Assembly (NCBI RefSeq): GCF_045037415.1
Contig: NZ_CP173438.1
From: Escherichia coli
GTDB lineage: Bacteria > Pseudomonadota > Gammaproteobacteria > Enterobacterales > Enterobacteriaceae
Reading direction: 5' to 3' (one strand)
DNA: 64,000 nucleotides
Shown here: piece after piece, positions 1,025 through 60,816 of the stretch
How positions within the stretch are numbered: position 1 is the first letter of the stretch
How the letters are laid out: each line of letters starts with the position of its first letter
Made by a program: the position numbers and the translations under genes
Notes under the pieces: generated by a model
Seen by the model: the letters and a program-made list of their open reading frames with translations, nothing else
Told to the model about the DNA's origin: nothing
The model's database searches: none

Positions 1025-2425
1025 ATGCCACATTCCTACGATTACGATGCCATAGTAATAGGTTCCGGCCCCGGCGGCGAAGGCGCTGCGATGGGCCTGG
1101 TTAAGCAAGGTGCGCGCGTCGCAGTTATCGAGCGTTATCAAAATGTTGGCGGCGGTTGCACCCACTGGGGCACCATCCCGTCGAAAGCTCTCCGTCACGC
1201 CGTCAGCCGCATTATAGAATTCAATCAAAACCCACTATACAGCGACCATTCCCGACTGCTCCGCTCTTCTTTTGCCGATATCCTTAACCATGCCGATAAC
1301 GTGATTAATCAACAAACGCGCATGCGTCAGGGATTTTACGAACGTAATCACTGTGAAATATTGCAGGGGAACGCTCGCTTTGTTGATGAGCATACGTTGG
1401 CGCTGGATTGCCCGGACGGCAGCGTCGAAACACTAACTGCTGAAAAATTTGTTATTGCCTGCGGTTCTCGTCCATATCATCCAACAGATGTTGATTTCAC
1501 CCATCCACGCATTTATGACAGCGACTCAATTCTTAGCATGCACCACGAACCGCGCCATGTACTTATTTACGGTGCTGGAGTGATCGGCTGTGAATATGCG
1601 TCGATCTTCCGCGGTATGGATGTAAAAGTGGATCTGATCAACACCCGCGATCGCCTGCTGGCATTTCTCGATCAAGAGATGTCAGATTCTCTCTCCTATC
1701 ACTTCTGGAACAGTGGCGTAGTGATTCGTCACAACGAAGAGTACGAGAAGATCGAAGGCTGTGATGACGGTGTGATCATGCATCTGAAGTCGGGTAAAAA
1801 ACTGAAAGCTGACTGTCTGCTCTATGCCAACGGTCGCACCGGTAATACCGATTCGCTGGCGTTACAGAACATTGGGCTGGAAACTGACAGTCGCGGACAG
1901 CTGAAGGTCAACAGCATGTATCAGACCGCACAGCCGCACGTTTACGCGGTGGGCGACGTGATTGGTTATCCGAGCCTGGCGTCGGCAGCCTATGACCAGG
2001 GGCGCATTGCCGCGCAGGCGCTGGTGAAAGGTGAAGCCACCGCACATCTGATTGAAGATATCCCTACCGGCATTTACACCATCCCGGAAATCAGCTCTGT
2101 AGGCAAAACCGAACAGCAGCTGACCGCGATGAAAGTGCCATATGAAGTAGGCCGCGCCCAGTTTAAACATCTGGCACGTGCACAAATCGTCGGCATGAAC
2201 GTGGGCACGCTGAAAATTTTGTTCCATCGGGAAACAAAAGAGATTCTGGGTATTCACTGCTTTGGCGAGCGCGCTGCCGAAATTATTCATATCGGTCAGG
2301 CGATTATGGAACAGAAAGGTGGCGGCAACACTATTGAGTACTTCGTCAACACCACCTTTAACTACCCGACGATGGCGGAAGCCTATCGGGTAGCTGCGCT
2401 AAATGGCTTAAACCGCCTGTTTTAA
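1025..2425 (+). CDS. sthA: soluble pyridine nucleotide transhydrogenase
   Basis: 466-aa [28 protein letters not shown]-binding N-terminus, matches remembered E. coli SthA length and sequence. Confidence 0.95.
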
Positions 2426-3325
2426 CACTTTATCGAAATGGCCATCCATTCTTGCGCGGATGGCCTCTGCCAGCTGCTCATAGCGGCTGCGCAGCGGTGA
2501 GCCAGGACGATAAACCAGGCCAATAGTGCGGCGTGGTTCCGGCTTAATGCACGGCAGATAAACAACCCCATCGCGTTTGCGTTCCGGCGGCACAGCCAGC
2601 GCAGGCAGTAAAGTGATCCCGCTACCTGCCGCCACCATGTTGCGCAGAGTTTCCAGGCTGGTCGCGCGGAAGTGTGTATCTTCATCCGCCCCGGCTTCAA
2701 AACAGAAACCCATTGCCTGATCGCGCAAACAGTGACCATCTTCCAGCATCAGCAGTTTTTCCCCTGCCAGATCGGCCATCGGTACGCATTCGCGGTTCGC
2801 CCACGGGTGGTCTTCATAGATAGCCAGCAACATTGGCTCATCAAACAACGGCACTTCAATGAATGCTTCGCTCTCTTTCACCAGCGCGAGGATCACGCAA
2901 TCGAGTTTGCCGCTGTCCAGTTGCGCCAGTAACTGGTGGGTCTGTGCTTCATGCAGATACATTTCCAGCTTTGGAAAGGTCTGGTGCAGCATCGGGATAA
3001 TATGCGGTAGCAGGTACGGTCCAACCGTGGGAATCAAACCAATATGCAGCGGTCCGGACATCGTCTCGCCCTGCTGGCTTGCCATCTCTTTAAGGACTTT
3101 CACCTCACGCAGCACGGTACGCGCCTGATCCACCAGCAGCATTCCCGCCTGGGTGAATAACACTTTACGGCTGGTCCGCTCCAGCAACATCACGCCCAGC
3201 TCATCTTCCAGCTTACGAATTTGCCCGCTAAGCGTCGGCTGGCTAACGTGGCAGGAATCTGCCGCACGCCGAAAATGGCGGTGTTCAGCCAATGCCACCA
3301 GGTACTCAAGATCACGAATATTCAT
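2408..3325 (-). CDS. oxyR: LysR-family oxidative stress regulator OxyR
   Basis: Track ORF 2408..3355; start trimmed to [40 protein letters not shown] (305 aa); 3' end overlaps sthA 3' end by 18 bp. Confidence 0.95.
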
Positions 3326-3339
3326 TATCCATCCTCCAT

Positions 3340-3420
3340 CGCCACGATAGTTCATGGCGATAGGTAGAATAGCAATGAACGATTATCCCTATCAAGCATT
3401 CTGACTGATAATTGCTCACA
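3340..3420. promoter_or_regulatory. oxyR/oxyS divergent promoter region with OxyR operator
   Basis: AT-rich dyad-containing sequence atagcaatgaacgattatccctatcaagcattctgactgataattgctcaca between the oxyR start and the oxyS 5' end; known arrangement in E. coli. Confidence 0.5.
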
Positions 3421-3535
3421 GAAACGGAGCGGCACCTCTTTTAACCCTTGAAGTCACAGCCCGTTTCGAGAGTTTCTCAGCTCGAATAACTAAAGCCAAC
3501 GTGAACTTTTGCGGATCTCCAGGATCCGCTTTTTT
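3421..3535 (+). ncRNA. oxyS: OxyS small regulatory RNA
   Basis: Sequence begins gaaacggagcggcacctcttttaacccttgaagtca and ends with hairpin gcggatctccaggatccgc plus T-tract (3511..3537); divergent from oxyR. Confidence 0.85.
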
Positions 3536-3591
3536 TTGCCATAAAAAAGCCCAGCGATAAGCCAGGCTCAAATTTATACATATAAATGTTC

Positions 3592-4965
3592 TTACCCCAA
3601 CCGCGCCTGCGCAAAAGCAATCGCCTGCGCCACCTGTTGCGGTGAGACACCGCCTTTTGCCGCACGCTTGTCGAGGCACGATTGCAGCGACAGAATCGGA
3701 TAGACATCTTCGCCAATCACCAGGCTGAATTTCTGCAACTCACTGAGTGGCAGATCTTCCAGCGGTTTGCCCTGACGAATGGCTTCCACCACCGCTTCAC
3801 CCACAATATGGTGCGCCTCGCGGAACGGTACGCCTTTCGCCACCAGATAATCCGCCAGTTCAGTAGCGTTGGAGTAACCCTGCTGCGCCGCTTCCTGGCA
3901 ACGCGGACGTTTCACCTGAATGCCGTCCAGCACCAGCGCCGCCATATGCAGGCAGTCCAGCCAGGTATCGAGCGCGTCGAACAGACCTTCTTTGTCTTCC
4001 TGCATATCTTTGTTGTAAGCCAGCGGCAAACCTTTCAGCGTCATCATCATGCCGGTTAACGCCCCCTGCACCCGACCGCATTTACCGCGAATCAGCTCCA
4101 GCGCATCCGGGTTTTTCTTCTGCGGCATTAATGATGAACCGGAAGTCACACGGTCAGAAAGCTCCACAAACCCCGCTTCGCCGGTGTTAAAGAAAATCAG
4201 ATCTTCAGCAAAACGCGACAGATGCACCATGCCGATAGCGGCAGCAGAAAGCAGTTCCAACACATGGTCACGGTCAGAAACGCTGTCGAGACTGTTACGG
4301 GTCGCCGAAGCAAAGCCCAGCCAACCTGCTAACTGTTCACGGTCGATTTCATAGGCCGTTCCTGCCAGTGCGCCACAGCCTAGCGGGCTGACATCCAGAC
4401 GCTTAAGCGCATCCTGCAAACGGCTTTCATCACGCGCCAGCATCTCAACGTAGGCCAGGCACCAGTGCGCGAACGTCACCGGCTGGGCGCGTTGCAGGTG
4501 GGTGTAACCCGGCATCACCGCGTCCTGATTGTTCTGCGCGGTCTCGACCAGAGCGGATTGTAACTGCCGGTTAGCCGTCAGCAACTCGCTAACGGTATCT
4601 TTGCACCACAGTTTCAGGTCAGTTGCTACCTGATCATTACGGCTACGCCCGGTATGCAATTTTTTGCCTAACTGACCCACTTTGTCGATCAGTTTGCCTT
4701 CCACCCAGCTATGGATATCTTCGGCGTCGCTTTCAAGGATTTGTTGTGGCCTGGCGCGAACATCTTCCAGCAGCACGTTCAGCGCCTCTTCCAGTTGCGC
4801 CTGCTCTTCTGCGGTTAACACGCCGACCGTTACCAGGGCTTTGGACCAGGCCACAGAGCCAACAATATCCTGCTCCGCCAGACGGTAATCAAAGCGCAGT
4901 GAGTCGTTGAATTGTTTGAACCGTTGATCTGCTGCCTGGGTAAAACGCCCGCCCCAAAGTGCCAT
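3592..4965 (-). CDS. argH: argininosuccinate lyase
   Basis: 457-aa ORF starting [34 protein letters not shown]; position in argCBH operon. Confidence 0.95.
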
Positions 4966-5025
4966 AACTCTGTTTCCTTATTTTGAAATTCAATGCCGGA
5001 AAGCTGCGCCTCCGGCCAACAAAAC

Positions 5026-5802
5026 TTAAGCTAAAATCCGCGTCCCCATCGGCATACCGTTAAACAGTGCCGGAAGCTGTTCCGCATGACGCCAGGAGGC
5101 GATATCTACCGGACGGCCCAACGTGCGCGCAGCATCCAGCGCCGCGTTCACTTTCACAATCATGCCGTCAGTAATAATGCCCTGCTCAATCAGTTGTTCT
5201 GCTTTCGCGGCGGTCATTTCGGCAATACGTTGCCCTTTGCCGTCGAGAATGCCGCTGACGTCAGAGAGCAAAATCAGATCCGCGCCCAGCGTTGCCGCCA
5301 GCGCCGTCGCCGCCTGGTCGGCATTGACGTTCATCAGTTGCCCTTCGTCTGTTACGCCAATGGAGCTGACCACCGGCAGATAACCGTTCTCCAGCAAACT
5401 GTTGATAAGCTTAGGCGAACCTGGCTGCGCCAGTCCAACATGGCCTAACTCTTCATCAAGCTGGGTCACTTTGATGCTGTCGCCGTCACCGAGAAACAAA
5501 CCTACGGCCGCAATCTGATGTTTCTTCGCCCATGCCAGCAGGGTTTTATTTGCCGTTCCCGCCAGTGCTCCGGTGATAATGTCTATCTGATCCGCAGGCG
5601 TCACCCGCAGGCCATTTTTCTTTTTCACCGGCAGATTCAGCCCTTTCATCAGCTCATCCACCACACAACCGCCGCCGTGCACAATCACCAGCGGACGCTG
5701 ATGTGACTCGCGATAATTCACCAGTGCGCTAAACAGACGTTCCAGCGCCTCTTCACTATCCAGCAGTACGCCACCCAGTTTGATAATTAATGGATTCATC
5801 AT
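5026..5802 (-). CDS. argB: acetylglutamate kinase
   Basis: Track ORF trimmed to [24 protein letters not shown] (258 aa). Confidence 0.93.
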
Positions 5803-5809
5803 TGCACCC

Positions 5810-6814
5810 TTAAATAAGAGACTGCGTTTCCGCATAGCCGAAACGAATATTGGCGCACTGCACCGCTTGTGCCGCCGCGCCTTTCAGTAAGTTGTCTTCG
5901 GTCGCCACAATAATCAGATGCTCGCCCTGAACGGCAAAACCGATATCGCAGAATGGCAGTCCAACGACATTTTTCAGCGCCGGAACGCCTTTGTCATACA
6001 GCCGCACCAGTGGTTTATGGGCATACGCCTGCTGTAACGCTTGCGCCACTTGCACCTGGCTCACACCCGGTTTCAGGCGGCAGGTAATGGTTTCGAGAAT
6101 GCCGCGCGGGAAATTGCCCAGATGCGGGGTGAAGATAACGTCAGCACCGAGGTGTGTGGCGATCTCTGGTTGATGGCGATGGGTAAAGACGCCATACGGT
6201 TGCAGGCTAACTTCACAAAAACTATTTGAAATCGCTGCCTTACGTCCTGCACCGCTCACGCCGCTGGTGGCGTTGATCACCGGCCACTGATTGAGGTCAA
6301 GAAGATCGGCATCAATCAACGGTTTCAGCGCCAGCTGTGCTGCCGTCGGATAACAGCCTGGCACGGCAATCAAGTTCGCTTCTTTTAATTTATTACCGCA
6401 CCACTCCGCCAGACCGTAGGCTGCCTGTTCCAGCAGTTCCGGGTATTGATGGGTAAAGCCGTAATATTTTTCATAGAAGGCGACATCGTTAACACGAAAC
6501 GCGCCGGAAAGGTCGAACACCACACAGCCTGCTTCAAGAAATTGCGGCGCTAAATCGTGGCTGACTTCATGGGCGGTGGCGAGAAACACCACGTCCACCC
6601 CTGGGCTAAACTCGCCGATATCCGACATCGGCTGCAACGGCAGATCAACGATGCCTTTTAGCTGCGGATGCAAATCGGAGATTAACTTTCCCGCATCATT
6701 GCTTTGCGCTGAAACAGTCAAAGCGGTTATGTTCATATGCGGATGGCGATTTACATAGGTCACTAGCTCTGCGCCAGCGTAGCCACTGGCACCCACAATC
6801 AGCGTATTCAACAT
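5810..6814 (-). CDS. argC: N-acetyl-gamma-glutamyl-phosphate reductase
   Basis: 334-aa [21 protein letters not shown]... Confidence 0.95.
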
Positions 6815-6904
6815 CGGGGCTATTCACCTTCTTATGTCTGGTTGCCAGGTTAAACGTAAAACATTCACCTTACGGCTGGTGGGTTTTATTACGCTCAACG
6901 TTAG

Positions 6905-6945
6905 TGTATTTTTATTCATAAATACTGCATGAATATTGATACTAT
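6905..6945. promoter_or_regulatory. ARG-box operator region of divergent argE/argCBH promoters
   Basis: tttattcataaatactgcatgaatattgatact contains tandem TGAAT/ATTCA ARG-box-like half sites between the argC and argE starts. Confidence 0.45.
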
Positions 6946-6967
6946 CATGACCAGAGGTGTGTCAACA

Positions 6968-8119
6968 ATGAAAAACAAATTACCGCCATTTATCGAGATT
7001 TACCGTGCTCTGATTGCCACACCTTCAATAAGCGCCACGGAAGAGGCACTCGATCAAAGCAATGCAGATTTAATCACTCTGCTGGCGGACTGGTTTAAGG
7101 ATTTAGGCTTCAATGTGGAAGTGCAGTCTGTGCCAGGAACTCGCAACAAATTTAATATGCTGGCCAGTTGCGGACAGGGGGCTGGCGGTTTGTTGCTGGC
7201 GGGGCATACCGATACGGTGCCATTTGATGACGGACGCTGGACGCGCGATCCATTTACGTTGACGGAGCATGACGGCAAGCTTTACGGCTTAGGCACCGCC
7301 GACATGAAAGGCTTTTTTGCGTTTATCCTTGATGCGCTACGCGATGTCGACGTCACGAAGCTTGCAAAACCGCTCTACATTCTGGCGACTGCCGATGAAG
7401 AAACCAGTATGGCCGGAGCGCGTTATTTTGCCGAAACTACCGCCCTGCGCCCGGATTGCGCCATCATTGGCGAGCCAACGTCGCTGCAACCGGTACGCGC
7501 ACATAAAGGCCACATCTCAAATGCCATTCGAATTATGGGTCAGTCGGGCCACTCCAGCGATCCGTCGCGCGGGGTTAACGCTATCGAACTGATGCACGAC
7601 GCCATCGGCCATATTTTGCAATTGCGCGATAACCTGAAAGAACGCTATCACTATGAAGCGTTTACCGTGCCATACCCCACACTCAACCTCGGGCATATTC
7701 ACGGCGGCGACGCCTCTAACCGTATTTGCGCTTGTTGTGAGTTGCATATGGATATTCGTCCGCTGCCAGGCATGACACTCAATGAACTTAATGGTTTGCT
7801 CAACGATGCATTGGCTCCAGTGAGCGAACGCTGGCCGGGTCGTCTGACGGTCGACGAGCTGCACCCGCCGATCCCTGGCTATGAATGCCCACCGAATCAT
7901 AAACTGGTTGAAGTGGTTGAGAAATTGCTCGGAGCAAAGACCGAAGTGGTGAATTACTGTACCGAAGCGCCGTTTATTCAAACGTTATGCCCGACGCTGG
8001 TTCTGGGGCCTGGCTCAATTAATCAGGCTCATCAGCCTGATGAATATCTGGAGACGAGGTTTATCAAGCCCACCCGCGAACTGATCACCCAGGTGATTCA
8101 CCATTTTTGCTGGCATTAA
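6968..8119 (+). CDS. argE: acetylornithine deacetylase
   Basis: Track ORF 6929..8119 trimmed to [26 protein letters not shown] (383 aa). Confidence 0.93.
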
Positions 8120-8136
8120 AACGTAGGCCAAACAAT

Positions 8137-25424: not shown

Positions 25425-25517
25425 GAGAGATCCAGTGTGTAGTTTTCCTGTGGACACTATACGCCGGTAAAGAAACTTCAGCGACTGCATGAAAGGCAGT
25501 CGCTGAAGAAGGTCAGA

Positions 25518-27752
<2,235 letters not shown>

Positions 27753-28995: not shown

Positions 28996-29216
28996 AAGGA
29001 AAAGCCGAAGGGCGTCAACCGAAAAATAACCAATGATGGTGAGGAAAAATCAGGGAAGATGAAAAAAACTCATCTTAATTAGAGGCGATAAAAGATTTCT
29101 CTATAGCGCAATCCACCTCGCACGTTTTGACTCATATTCTGACAACACAGCGACACCTGGGCTAATTCGAAAAACAACGTCCTGCCACCGGATGGTGATG
29201 TTAAGGCATCTGATTC

Positions 29217-29238
29217 GGCCTGCGCCCTCGCGTAGGCC
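29217..29238 (-). terminator. imperfect hairpin downstream of the nucleotidase-like gene
   Basis: ggcctgcgccctcgcgtaggcc, 8-bp stem with one mismatch, about 60 bp beyond the minus-strand stop at 29299; no clear U-tract. Confidence 0.3.
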
Positions 29239-29298
29239 GAATACAGGATCTGCGCAATCAACGGGTAACAAACAGTTGAGTCAATTCAGTGCGCACTT

Positions 29299-30852
29299 TT
29301 ATTTGATATCCTTCACGCGCATACCGTTGAGCTGTTCATCCGTAATGGTGTTGCCCGCTTTGAAGTAATCAACCACCGCGTGATAAACGTAATAACCGCC
29401 CGTTGTGTTACGCGCTTTCCCTTCGGTAAAGGCGGTAAAACCATCTCCACCATCAGCAAGGAAACTCTGAGTAGCAATGTGATAAACCGTCGCATCTTCA
29501 ATGGGTTTGCCATTCAAAGTCAGTGTGATTACCCGCTGACCAACCGGCCTGTTGCTGTCGTACTTCATTTCCAGGCCTTTCGATACCTGTAAAACGCCAT
29601 TGCTTAAACTTGCGCCGTGTTCCATCAGACTGCGTAATTGTTTACCCATGAGTTCCATCGTCACCAGTTCGTTGGGGAACGGAAACGTACTGATGACGCC
29701 GCCCATCGTGATCGCCCCTGCGGGGATCTCATTGCGGATACCACCAGAGTTTGTTAACGCCAGTTGGGTGTTTTTACCCGCCGCTACCAATAAAGCGTCA
29801 GCCGCCAGGTTCCCGAGGGAAGCCGATTCACCATAGGCACGTTTTAATTCAACCGGCGATTGCGCCACCGTTTGTTGCACCACTTCATCAAGCTTTTTAT
29901 TCCAGCCGTCGATCACCTGTTTCGTTTGCGGATCGGGCTTCCACTCGTCAGCGTAAATGGTTTTAAGCTCGAAGTTTTTCACCGTAAAATTATGCGGCTT
30001 CTCTTTGTAGTCGAGAACCAGTTTGCCCACATCAATCCCGCCGCTGTCAGTGGAGAGGATGAGCGTATTGCCGACTTTAATCGGTTCCGGCGTACCCACA
30101 TGTGCATGTCCGGTGATCAAAATATCCAGCCCTTTCACCTGACTTGCCGTCTGAATATCTTTATCCAACGCGCGACGCACATCTGTGCCTCCCATACTGG
30201 ACTGGCGGGCTGGAACACCTTCGTGGATCAGGGCGACGGTCAAATCAACCTTGCCTTTGAGTTCATCGATATAACGTTGTAGCCATTTAATTTCATCGCG
30301 CGCTTCAATACCCACGCGCGTGGCAGCAGATACCGTATCATTAAAGGCAAATACTCCGTGCAAACCAATAACGCCTATTTTCACACCGTCTTTTTCGATG
30401 ATGGTATAGGGCTTATCCCAGAATGATTTACTGCTGTTCTGATAAAAAATATTGCCCTGCACAATAGGGAATTTTGCCTGGCTCAACTGTAATAATGTGT
30501 TGTCCCAGCCGTGGTCAAATTCATGGTTGCCTATTGTGACGGCATCAAACGGCATAGTATTCATAATATCGATAATAGCCTTACCTTTGGTCAGGCTGCT
30601 GATATATGGCCCGGTAAAATAGTCGCCCGCATCAAAAAACCATGTCGCTTTATTTTTTGCTTTTTCTTGCTTAACCAGCGTAGTGATATTTGCCCAGCCG
30701 CCAATATCCCGTTTACCGTCAGCGATCCACGGCACTTTATAAGGCTCGACATGTGCATGGAGGTCGTTGGTATAAATGATGGTGACATCTTTAGCGCAAG
30801 CCCAGAATGGCAGTGTTAATGCGATACCCGCAGCAAGTATTTTAATTTTCAT
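29299..30852 (-). CDS. secreted bifunctional metallophosphoesterase / 5'-nucleotidase-family protein (UshA/CpdB-like); not in K-12 at this position
   Basis: 517-aa ORF with signal peptide [20 protein letters not shown]; calcineurin-like motifs [38 protein letters not shown]; C-terminal half consistent with 5'-nucleotidase substrate-binding domain. Confidence 0.8.
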
Positions 30853-30984
30853 AAACAGTCCCTTTCAGTGAGATAAAGGATTGCTACATTACGTTCTGAA
30901 AGACTTATTTATGTGAGAGTAATCACATCCGCAGGGGATAGTTGCCGGACAAAATCAACGACCTTGTGAAATCGTTGGTGATAT

Positions 30985-32115
30985 ATGTCGACTCTGTTTA
31001 CGATTAATGCCTGTAAGTCGTTTGGTTGCCGTAATTTAGGGCAGCCAACATCGACAGATTATAGCTGGCCCGACTATCGACTGGGTTATCCGGCACTGCA
31101 CTGTCGGGCATGTGGCAGTTACCCGCCGTTGTTTGACGAGCAACAATTTCGTGACTGGTTGACAGTTCACTTATCTACTTTTGCAACAGAGAAAGGCCAT
31201 TTTTGCCCGGTATGTTATGGCACAGAGACGATTTGTTATGGTCACAATCCACAGGGTTCGCAACGCATTCAATGCCGTAACTGCAAAAAAGTATGGACAC
31301 CCAAACAATATCAGAAAGAAATAACGACTCCCGAAATAATCGAAACGGTTGCTTTGCTCGTGCCATTTCAGGGAGTCAGCAGCGGGCAGAAACTGTATGT
31401 TTTAATCAGTTTTGATGCTCTTCGCGGTAATATTCTTCATCTTTCTACTAATTACACGCAGCATCAGGCTGGAGAAAGTCTGCATTATCGATACAGAGGA
31501 AATGCAGAACCAGAGTTACACGACAATAATATTGTACAACGCGTTGATATGCGCGAAGCACAATTTCTACGCCGCAGTCAGTTTGATGAAATTCAGTATG
31601 GCAGCGCAGCGCTCAAGCGCAATGCCAAAGGCGCTATTCTGCGTCCGGTTATCACTGCACACGGGCATTTCAGAGTACTGAATATTTTATTCCCTACAGT
31701 AAAAACACATGTAATTTCACACGAGTGTTTTTTAAGAGGTGCCATTATTACGGCCTGGGCTGATCTGTTTCGCCAACAGCAAGGTGAAATTTGGTTTATT
31801 GAAGAGGAAATAGCTGACGATACCGATAATATGCCCTGGCGTTTTCAGGGAAAAACTTATCACGGCTGGTGGAAAAATCAGTGGCAACTCTGGGTTCAGG
31901 GAAAAAATCGTAAAATGGTATGTGCATTAACGGGCGGAAAGAGTAGCAAAGCAGAAATGCTCTCTTTAGCAACCAGCAGACATTTTATCGACTGGCTACA
32001 TAAACAAGCAGTATTTACTCACAGCGCCCCGCTTTCCGCAGGGCGCGTTACGCAAATACTGCTTTCTCTGGCTCAGGATTACAACAACTGCGCCAGTCGG
32101 TTAATATCCGACTGA
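30985..32115 (+). CDS. cysteine-rich zinc-ribbon protein, transposase-like N-terminus (IS1 InsA / IS1595-type zinc finger), C-terminal domain of unknown function
   Basis: 376-aa ORF; CxxC pairs at C10/C15, C40/C43, C74/C77, C97/C100; CPVCYGTETICYGHNPQGSQRIQCRNCKKVW parallels the IS1 InsA CPxC...QRYxCxxCxKxW pattern; hand-estimated GC near 42 percent; last 37 nt overlap the antisense metL 3' end. Confidence 0.65.
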   Translation: MSTLFTINACKSFGCRNLGQPTSTDYSWPDYRLGYPALHCRACGSYPPLFDEQQFRDWLTVHLSTFATEKGHFCPVCYGTETICYGHNPQGSQRIQCRNCKKVWTPKQYQKEITTPEIIETVALLVPFQGVSSGQKLYVLISFDALRGNILHLSTNYTQHQAGESLHYRYRGNAEPELHDNNIVQRVDMREAQFLRRSQFDEIQYGSAALKRNAKGAILRPVITAHGHFRVLNILFPTVKTHVISHECFLRGAIITAWADLFRQQQGEIWFIEEEIADDTDNMPWRFQGKTYHGWWKNQWQLWVQGKNRKMVCALTGGKSSKAEMLSLATSRHFIDWLHKQAVFTHSAPLSAGRVTQILLSLAQDYNNCASRLISD

Positions 32116-36268: not shown

Positions 36269-36327
36269 AGCGGAAAAGAGCGGCGCGGAGTTAACCAGCC
36301 GCTTTTTTCATACATGGACGTTTAACG

Positions 36328-36996: not shown

Positions 36997-37248
<252 letters not shown>

Positions 37249-37252
37249 CTAA

Positions 37253-39610
<2,358 letters not shown>

Positions 39611-41870: not shown

Positions 41871-41934
41871 TGCATTATGCCCCGTACTTTTGTACGGGGT
41901 TTGTACTCTGTATTCGTAACCAAGGGGTCAGCTC

Positions 41935-42465
41935 GTGACAACTATAGTAAGCGTACGCCGTAACGGCCATGTGGTCATCGCTGGTGATGGTCAGGCCACG
42001 TTGGGCAATACCGTAATGAAAGGCAACGTGAAAAAGGTCCGCCGTCTGTACAACGACAAAGTCATCGCGGGCTTTGCGGGCGGTACTGCGGATGCTTTTA
42101 CGCTGTTCGAACTGTTTGAACGTAAACTGGAAATGCATCAGGGCCATCTGGTCAAAGCCGCCGTTGAGCTGGCGAAAGACTGGCGTACCGATCGCATGCT
42201 GCGCAAACTTGAAGCACTGCTGGCAGTCGCGGATGAAACTGCATCGCTTATCATCACCGGTAACGGTGACGTGGTGCAGCCAGAAAACGATCTTATTGCT
42301 ATCGGCTCCGGCGGCCCTTACGCCCAGGCTGCGGCGCGCGCGCTGTTAGAAAACACTGAACTTAGCGCCCGTGAAATTGCTGAAAAGGCGTTGGATATTG
42401 CAGGCGACATTTGCATCTATACCAACCATTTCCACACCATCGAAGAATTAAGCTACAAAGCGTAA
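41935..42465 (+). CDS. hslV: ATP-dependent protease subunit HslV
   Basis: 176-aa [27 protein letters not shown]. Confidence 0.97.
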
Positions 42466-48508: not shown

Positions 48509-48516
48509 TAATGATT

Positions 48517-48552
48517 GCCTGATGCGACGCTTGCGCGTCTTATCAGGCCTAC
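48517..48552. repeat. REP element
   Basis: gcctgatgcgacgcttgcgcgtcttatcaggcctac. Confidence 0.8.
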
Positions 48553-48678
48553 GAGTCGGATACACATCCGGCATCACGCAGACTCTGAAACCGTGCGGGG
48601 GCAACCCCGCACACATCAATAATCCCGCCCTTCCCCTGTGCTACACTTCGCGCCATTCCTTACTGCTTAGAGTTTGCT

Positions 48679-55589: not shown

Positions 55590-55687
55590 GCCGGATGCGG
55601 CACAAACGCCTTATCCGGCCTACAAAAGTTTGCAAATTCAATAGATTACAGAATTCATGTAGGCCTGATAAGCGAAGCGCATCAGGC
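55590..55687. repeat. REP pair (BIME)
   Basis: gccggatgcggcacaaacgccttatccggcctaca and gtaggcctgataagcgaagcgcatcaggc. Confidence 0.8.
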
Positions 55688-57870: not shown

Positions 57871-57937
57871 AAAAAAAACCCCCACATCATGTGGGGGAAG
57901 ACAGGGATGGTGTCTATGGCAAGGAAAACAGGGTTTA
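57871..57937 (-). ncRNA. cpxQ: probable CpxQ sRNA (processed cpxP 3'UTR) with rho-independent terminator
   Basis: Region immediately downstream of the cpxP stop ends in hairpin ccccacatgatgtggggg plus T-tract on the minus strand (plus-strand 57871..57897); exact 5' end not determinable from sequence. Confidence 0.45.
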
Positions 57938-59286: not shown

Positions 59287-60656
59287 TAGGCAGCTTAACC
59301 GCGCGCATCTTCGCCATCTTCTGGCTGACGCTGGCGCTGGTGTTGATGTTGGTTTTGATGTTACCCAAGCTCGATTCACGCCAGATGACCGAGCTTCTGG
59401 ATAGCGAACAGCGTCAGGGTCTGATGATTGAGCAGCATGTCGAAGCGGAGCTGGCGAACGATCCGCCCAACGATTTAATGTGGTGGCGGCGTCTGTTCCG
59501 GGCGATTGATAAGTGGGCACCGCCAGGACAGCGTTTGTTACTGGTGACCACCGAAGGCCGCGTGATCGGCGCTGAACGCAGCGAAATGCAGATCATTCGT
59601 AACTTTATTGGTCAGGCCGATAACGCCGATCATCCGCAGAAGAAAAAGTATGGCCGCGTGGAACTGGTCGGTCCGTTCTCCGTGCGTGATGGCGAAGATA
59701 ATTACCAACTTTATCTGATTCGTCCGGCCAGCAGTTCTCAATCCGATTTCATAAACTTACTGTTTGACCGCCCGCTATTACTGCTGATTGTCACCATGCT
59801 GGTCAGTACGCCGCTGCTGTTGTGGTTGGCCTGGAGTCTGGCAAAACCGGCGCGTAAGCTGAAAAACGCTGCCGATGAAGTTGCCCAGGGAAACTTACGC
59901 CAGCACCCGGAACTGGAAGCGGGGCCACAGGAATTCCTTGCCGCCGGTGCCAGTTTTAACCAGATGGTCACCGCGCTGGAGCGCATGATGACCTCTCAGC
60001 AGCGTCTACTTTCTGATATCTCTCACGAACTGCGCACCCCGCTGACGCGTCTGCAACTGGGTACGGCGTTACTGCGCCGTCGTAGCGGTGAAAGCAAGGA
60101 ACTGGAGCGTATTGAAACCGAAGCGCAACGTCTGGACAGCATGATCAACGATCTGTTGGTGATGTCACGTAATCAGCAGAAAAATGCGCTGGTTAGCGAG
60201 ACCATCAAAGCCAACCAGTTGTGGAGTGAAGTGCTGGATAACGCGGCGTTCGAAGCCGAGCAAATGGGCAAGTCGTTGACGGTTAACTTCCCACCTGGGC
60301 CGTGGCCGCTGTACGGCAACCCGAACGCCCTGGAAAGTGCGCTGGAAAACATTGTTCGTAATGCTCTGCGTTATTCCCATACGAAGATTGAAGTGGGCTT
60401 TGCGGTAGATAAAGACGGTATCACCATTACGGTGGACGACGATGGTCCTGGCGTTAGCCCGGAAGATCGCGAACAGATTTTCCGTCCGTTCTATCGGACC
60501 GATGAAGCACGCGATCGTGAATCTGGCGGTACAGGTTTGGGGCTGGCGATTGTTGAAACCGCCATTCAGCAGCATCGTGGCTGGGTGAAGGCAGAAGACA
60601 GCCCGCTGGGCGGTTTACGGCTGGTGATTTGGTTGCCGCTGTATAAGCGGTCATAA
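59283..60656 (+). CDS. cpxA: envelope stress sensor histidine kinase CpxA
   Basis: 457-aa ORF; H-box SHELRTPLTRL; 4-bp overlap with cpxR. Confidence 0.97.
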   Translation: MIGSLTARIFAIFWLTLALVLMLVLMLPKLDSRQMTELLDSEQRQGLMIEQHVEAELANDPPNDLMWWRRLFRAIDKWAPPGQRLLLVTTEGRVIGAERSEMQIIRNFIGQADNADHPQKKKYGRVELVGPFSVRDGEDNYQLYLIRPASSSQSDFINLLFDRPLLLLIVTMLVSTPLLLWLAWSLAKPARKLKNAADEVAQGNLRQHPELEAGPQEFLAAGASFNQMVTALERMMTSQQRLLSDISHELRTPLTRLQLGTALLRRRSGESKELERIETEAQRLDSMINDLLVMSRNQQKNALVSETIKANQLWSEVLDNAAFEAEQMGKSLTVNFPPGPWPLYGNPNALESALENIVRNALRYSHTKIEVGFAVDKDGITITVDDDGPGVSPEDREQIFRPFYRTDEARDRESGGTGLGLAIVETAIQQHRGWVKAEDSPLGGLRLVIWLPLYKRS

Positions 60657-60679
60657 CGTCAACCTTCAGGTAAAAAAAT

Positions 60680-60816
60680 GCCTGATGCACTACGCTTATC
60701 AGGCCTACAAAACCTGTTGAATTTATGGGTTTTGTAGGCTGGATAAGGCGTTTACGCCGCATCCGGCATTTGAGCAGGATGCCTGATGCGACGCTGATAG
60801 CGTCTTATCAGGCCTA
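60680..60816. repeat. BIME cluster of three REP elements
   Basis: gcctgatgcactacgcttatcaggcctac; gtaggctggataaggcgtttacgccgcatccggca; gcctgatgcgacgctgatagcgtcttatcaggcctac. Confidence 0.85.

Follow-up and report, generated by a model that had tools for sequence, protein, structure and literature searches.

The oxyS small RNA gene between oxyR and argH of an Escherichia coli genome belongs to a minority two-base haplotype

The segment at 3421-3537 on the plus strand of the window, by which we mean the whole stretch of 64,000 nucleotides of Escherichia coli DNA analysed here, is almost certainly oxyS, the gene encoding the small regulatory RNA OxyS (probability about 97%, judged from the sequence). 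OxyS is among the earliest bacterial regulatory RNAs to have been characterised. When the whole window was scanned against Rfam 15 with cmscan, a single OxyS match was returned, namely to family RF00035 at 3421-3530 (+), with a score of 132.2 bits (E 2.9e-27) that is nearly double the gathering score of 75. The match is untruncated and spans model positions 1-110 of 110. Likewise, the curated ncRNA gene oxyS of K-12 MG1655 (b4458; 117 nt) aligns to 3421-3537, and on the basis of both comparisons the gene begins at the transcription start and includes the whole U-run of the terminator. Its 5' end is probably G3421, as suggested by the K-12 annotation and by model position 1. A previous sequence-only reading had recognised an OxyS-like sequence at 3421-3535 and had proposed that it be checked with Infernal against the OxyS model of Rfam; the full-length match and the K-12 alignment confirm that reading, and the end that it gave lies inside the terminal T-run, within 2 nt of position 3537.

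The window copy and oxyS of K-12 MG1655 have the same length, the same three hairpins and the same position between oxyR and argH. The loops that pair with fhlA, the linker and the terminator are identical in the two, and so are the 121 bp upstream of the oxyS +1 position, which include the operator and the -10 element. Within the RNA the alignment contains two differences, which are discussed below. All defining features of the OxyS family that can be assessed in a sequence are present. Of 5426 complete E. coli genomes, 5425 contain the locus. Among the 5426 places that matched oxyS, two belong to records with a plasmid label, and a single genome carries two copies.

The gene order sthA-oxyR-oxyS-argH is that of K-12, read in reverse. 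Protein-family matches identify sthA at 1025-2425 (+) and argH, encoding argininosuccinate lyase, at 3592-4965 (-), i.e., downstream of oxyS. The open reading frame at 2408-3325 (-) matches the NCBIfam OxyR equivalog NF008361 over residues 1-305 of 305 with 632.9 bits (cut-off 329) and is annotated as oxyR in K-12 and in SA186. It is thus assigned to oxyR, the gene of the H2O2-sensing LysR-type activator of oxyS. The proposed divergent arrangement of the two genes is borne out by this match on the opposite strand, with 95 bp separating G3421 from the oxyR start codon at 3325. Taken together, the family match, the divergent oxyR gene, the shared operator, the terminator and the downstream argH gene, all as in the curated K-12 locus, support the identification as OxyS.

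The expectation that such a gene escapes ORF-based annotation proved correct. In searches with the 117-nt queries, none of the 55 RefSeq records listed carries a feature under the match, and SA186, in which a stretch of 301 nt is identical to the window, has no annotated feature between oxyR and argH. Unlike the automatic RefSeq annotation of the genomes listed, the curated K-12 record does carry the oxyS ncRNA. A reader relying on ORFs would therefore see an apparently empty gap of 266 bp between oxyR and argH. The short spacer that separates the oxyS terminator from the stop codon of argH (3538-3591) is an insertion hot spot: similarity to the window stops right after the oxyS U-run in 1870 of 5425 complete E. 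coli genomes, or about one third. In strain 2017.04.02CC an MFS transporter gene and manD are inserted as a pair after oxyS (4239-7339 of the retrieved locus), and several kilobases lie between oxyS and argH in Escherichia whittamii, in Escherichia sp. E1V33 and in two Citrobacter genomes. In the window the spacer is in the empty, K-12-like state.

Upstream of oxyS the sequence-only reading had pointed to an OxyR operator, and this was substantiated by motif searches. The core ATAG-N7-CNAT-N7-ATAG-N7-CNAT, consisting of four elements spaced 11 bp apart, has a single match in the 64 kb, at 3347-3383 (+), which corresponds to positions -74 to -38 relative to the oxyS +1; none was expected from 100 shuffles. 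With the CTAT form of the four-element core this is again the sole match, with 2 mismatches in 16 positions and 0.06 matches expected. The four-tetranucleotide core was used in place of the strict 20-position Toledano consensus (ATAGnTnnnAnCTAT-N7-ATAGnTnnnAnCTAT), which has no match at up to 3 mismatches and from which the site deviates at 4 of 20 positions. A summary of the footprinting literature locates three ATAG-N7-CTAT repeats at positions -66, -44 and -35 relative to the start of oxyS (PMC5002191); here the element centres are at -67, -45 and -36, a constant offset of one base. Judged by sequence, the 64 kb contain no near-consensus OxyR site other than the oxyS/oxyR operator. The window also contains katG, a member of the OxyR regulon, at about 25504-27684 (-) according to coordinates mapped from K-12, and the region upstream of katG has no match to the four-ATAG core at up to 3 mismatches.

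The oxyS promoter has a -10 element, GATAAT, at 3407-3412 (+), 8 nt before the +1, and it has no good -35 element. In a consensus promoter scan no full sigma-70 match was found on the plus strand, and two were found on the minus strand. The lack of a plus-strand consensus fits an activator-dependent promoter and is not positive evidence for one. On the minus strand, the combination TTGATA-18-TATTCT at 3395-3366 is plausibly the oxyR promoter. Across 40 distinct sequences the oxyR-oxyS intergenic block hardly varies, AACGATTATCCCTATCAAG included, and the four operator elements and the ATAAT of the -10 element are invariant; comparison across genera indicates that the conserved operator block runs to about 3396. 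A similar design is known from the gcvA-gcvB locus, where the gene of a LysR-type activator and a divergent gene for an Hfq-dependent small RNA are likewise served by a single operator in the intervening DNA (PMC5002191). That system has its own regulator, signal, RNA family and targets, and the comparison is one of architecture only.

The RNA has the three-hairpin structure of the family, with all stems aligning to RF00035 and one non-canonical pair, G11.A38. According to the Rfam consensus structure, SL1 (nt 1-47) is located at 3421-3467 and SL2 (nt 50-63), which lies within the nusG-pairing region, at 3470-3483; the assignment of nt 1-47 to SL1 agrees with NMR data (PMC10578473). They are followed by a linker (nt 64-90; 3484-3510) identical to that of K-12. 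The Hfq-contact motifs described in the literature are an A-rich stretch at nt 65-74 and a U-rich stretch at nt 87-90, and a further hairpin, SL4 (nt 72-89), forms in NMR experiments (PMC10578473). Motifs A65-A74 and U87-U90 as well as the U8 tail are all present and identical to K-12. The proposed intrinsic terminator is evident as SL3 (3511-3537): the stem-loop at 3511-3529 consists of 8 pairs, 5 of them G-C, and a loop of 3, and it is followed by TTTTTTTT, with the eight U residues at 3530-3537. argH has a separate terminator on the minus strand at 3569-3547.

Comparative data argue for conservation of this structure. When 44 aligned sequences were examined, standard pairs were present in 76.8% of the cells of the Rfam structure, as compared with 29-48% (at most 47.5%) when the pairing partners were slid, and 13 pairs showed changes on both sides. 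In the lower and middle stem of SL1, both-side changes were counted at 8 of 11 pairs. The counts were made on a noisy MAFFT alignment of these 44 sequences, in which scores are low for SL2 and for the outermost pairs of SL1. From the same raw alignment RNAalifold recovered the terminator helix alone, because indels blur the columns of SL1 and SL2; at one position of that helix the pair types are CG in 38 and UA in 6 sequences. Folding of the single sequence was modestly better than that of shuffled controls (z = -2.09). The minimum free energy structure of the window allele reproduced SL1 and SL3, and in place of SL2 it contained an alternative fold of nt 48-90. This weak single-sequence result is no evidence against membership in the OxyS family.

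Homologues were collected by searching a single genome of each species for the core of the linker (nt 67-86), which yielded 43 loci from at least 11 enterobacterial genera, i.e., Escherichia, Citrobacter, Salmonella, Klebsiella, Raoultella, Enterobacter, Trabulsiella, Siccibacter, Franconibacter, Yokenella and Pseudocitrobacter. Invariance of nt 67-86 in all 43 loci is not independent evidence of conservation, given that this segment served as the search pattern, and the same applies to SL4 (nt 72-89). A divergent oxyR gene is located upstream in 42 of the 43 loci, the exception having just 66 nt of upstream sequence available, and argH is located downstream in 36. The window copy and the OxyS genes of other Enterobacteriaceae have in common a divergently oriented oxyR, a terminator hairpin, and an operator, -10 element and linker core that are invariant. 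By contrast, the RNAs from other genera are far more variable, and the window copy is of the Escherichia type. Five Citrobacter copies lack SL2, the hairpin that pairs with nusG in E. coli, and in six copies from Klebsiella and Raoultella SL1 is of another kind and lacks the UAACCCUUG loop that pairs with fhlA. No such variation affects the linker core, the terminator, the operator or the -10 element.

Both loops that are known to contact fhlA are present in the window copy. The SL3 loop UCCAGGA (3518-3524) is an exact 7-nt complement of positions -15 to -9 of fhlA and covers the ribosome-binding site, while the SL1 loop UAACCCUUG (nt 22-30; 3442-3450) forms a 9-pair match with a site in the coding region at +33 to +41. 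For the latter loop, a duplex with fhlA +33 to +48 of -13.1 kcal/mol is predicted. Two fhlA pairing sites have been published (PMC10578473), and the loops in the window copy agree with them. On the target side, identity in the 5' region of fhlA reaches at least 99% in 5421 of 5423 E. coli records. A second predicted duplex, of -24.5 kcal/mol for both the window and the K-12 alleles, joins nt 49-88 of OxyS with positions -42 to +13 of nusG, in agreement with the experimentally mapped nusG site at -20 to +13 (PMC5793797). In SA186, which carries the same oxyS allele, the nusG region from -60 to +40 is identical.

Taking into account these data and the published work on the OxyS mechanism (PMC10578473, PMC5793797, PMC11572966), we propose that the window gene would operate as follows. 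H2O2 would oxidise OxyR, and oxidised OxyR would then occupy the four ATAG-type elements at 3347-3383, beside the weak -35 region, and elicit transcription from the -10 element at 3407-3412 with G3421 as the start. This operator also overlaps the promoter of the divergent oxyR gene, and its occupation would lead to oxyR autorepression as well. Transcription would end at the hairpin and U8 tract (3511-3537), leaving an RNA of about 110 nt with SL1, SL2 and SL3. The A-rich and U-rich motifs of its linker would bind Hfq, as would the 3' U-tail, the site for the proximal face of Hfq, and OxyS would act in trans through base pairing. A two-site kissing complex with fhlA would block translation, whereas pairing of SL2 and the linker with the nusG ribosome-binding region would lower NusG and, in strains that carry kilR, cause a transient cell-cycle arrest. 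In addition, OxyS would activate translation of iscR. Induction by H2O2 via oxidised OxyR is inferred here from a promoter and an operator identical to those of K-12, while Hfq binding and the regulatory outcomes are presumed from the literature on the near-identical K-12 gene. There, repression of nusG by OxyS was found to act via KilR and to result in transient division arrest and fewer mutations (PMC5793797), and activation of iscR translation by OxyS was found to affect aminoglycoside entry (PMC11572966).

The two differences from K-12 are located in SL1 and SL2. At nt 38 (3458) the window has A in place of U, which converts the G11-U38 pair to a G.A mismatch flagged as non-canonical by cmscan, and at nt 60 (3480) it has G in place of A, which converts U53-A60 to a U53.G60 wobble. 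The other Escherichia homologues retrieved, from E. albertii, E. whittamii, two Escherichia sp. and a further E. coli, all have U38 and A60, and this indicates that the A38/G60 state of the window is the derived one. Among the 5426 complete E. coli genomes, a query of the window type (A38/G60) found 548 records at 99% identity or more and a query of the K-12 type (U38/A60) found 4879. Their sum of 5427 for 5425 records implies that U38A and A60G are almost completely linked and that there are two haplotypes, A38/G60 being the minority one with about 10% of the complete genomes. Over its first 25 kb the window shows 100% identity to human isolates, among them the O25:H4 strain CU568-3, JJ2434 and H105. 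The ST131 clone has the serotype O25:H4.

Most likely, U38A and A60G affect the function of the RNA little or not at all. It is conceivable, though unlikely, that the RNA is OxyS with an altered function, in terms of stability, Hfq loading or choice of targets. U38A abolishes a pair that is standard in 38 of the 44 sequences (GU in 23, GC in 10, AU in 5, other combinations in 6), and the predicted pairing probability of positions 11 and 38 drops from 0.98 to 0.00. For A60G, folding in silico predicts a competing helix between nt 48-55 and nt 83-90, with the probability of SL2 falling from 0.49 to 0.06; moreover, the two changes travel together, almost perfectly linked, in some 548 genomes. On the other hand, ViennaRNA assigns nearly the same energy to the Rfam structure of the window and the K-12 alleles (-30.1 versus -30.5 kcal/mol), and A60G retains its pair as a wobble. 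Both fhlA loops and the Hfq motifs are untouched by the two changes, and the terminator is that of K-12. Nucleotide 60 is outside the pairs of the predicted nusG duplex, whose energy does not change with A60G, and neutral drift would be sufficient to give two linked changes in one clonal lineage. A specific model, to which we attach still less weight, holds that the haplotype is non-neutral: an opened middle of the SL1 stem together with an alternative fold of SL2 and linker might change the stability of the RNA, its Hfq loading and the strength of nusG and iscR regulation.

That the match reflects merely a conserved oxyR regulatory and argH terminator region, as opposed to an independently transcribed gene, is barely tenable. 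In favour of this idea, the intergenic block is better conserved than the 5' half of the RNA, and, as noted above, the plus strand lacks a full sigma-70 consensus. However, the covariance-model match covers all three hairpins and lies outside the operator, the stems contain compensatory changes, and the plus-strand terminator is distinct from that of argH. OxyS furthermore stays beside oxyR even where several kilobases have been inserted before argH, and the OxyS RNA of K-12 has been characterised experimentally (PMC10578473, PMC5793797, PMC11572966).

A small protein encoded instead of, or besides, the regulatory RNA has next to no likelihood: a frame of 13 codons (TTG to TAA; nt 28-69, frame 0) and an 87-aa ORF starting with GTG and spanning the locus on the opposite strand (3416-3679) do exist, but the former lacks a Shine-Dalgarno sequence and is interrupted by indels in Salmonella as well as in several SL2-less Citrobacter homologues, the latter has no NCBIfam family match and crosses the argH terminator into the argH coding region, and conservation across species tracks loops and stems and no reading frame. 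Both candidates were rejected, the sense frame for want of conservation across species and the antisense ORF for want of a family match.

Several other features of the window differ from K-12 or are non-coding. Positions 1-906 have no counterpart in the sthA-fabR region of K-12, and SA186 has an M20 aminoacylase gene and a citrate-proton symporter gene between sthA and fabR, which suggests that the window starts inside a small accessory islet. In the neighbourhood of oxyS, an accessory gene pair beyond sthA sets the window lineage apart from K-12. Another 3 kb or so (29068-32077), located between metF and metL, are absent from K-12; the ORFs there are one of 517 aa at 29299-30852 (-), annotated in SA186 as 'bifunctional metallophosphatase/5'-nucleotidase', and one of 376 aa at 30985-32115 (+), annotated as 'hypothetical protein'. 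Small intergenic differences from K-12 are located at 8129-8134, 36291-36295, 48509-48587 and 60650-60731. The window lacks some 300 bp that K-12 has between ppc and argE (4153385-4153686) as well as some 130 bp near yiiX and metJ, and two other short intergenic stretches are replaced. We suspect that the small intergenic differences represent variable clusters of REP-type repeats.

The CpxQ small RNA, which derives from the cpxP 3' UTR, is located at 57871-57928 (-) and is identical to K-12 in 57 of 58 bases. It was not reported by the Rfam scan of the window at gathering thresholds and is a further non-coding element that ORF-based annotation would miss. The same scan of Rfam families identified the REP-derived element naRNA4 at 60737-60814 (+; 82 bits), the ClpQY (hslVU) promoter element at 41880-41937 (+; 63.6 bits), the L31 ribosomal-protein leader upstream of rpmE at 37216-37268 (-; 60.1 bits) and, as a borderline case, ES036 at 55625-55666 (+; 37.9 versus 37.6 bits).

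The window copy is a textbook example of OxyS and adds little new biology: the gene is already known, and the description of the haplotype is the only new detail. Its practical value is a point of annotation, since oxyS is unannotated in every genome listed except for the curated K-12 record. Of some interest is the existence of two discrete oxyS haplotypes in E. coli, with the window representing the minority type in which a conserved stem pair is broken. If the haplotypes did differ in function, A38/G60 would entail an altered peroxide response, and possibly an altered aminoglycoside tolerance, in a clinically important lineage.
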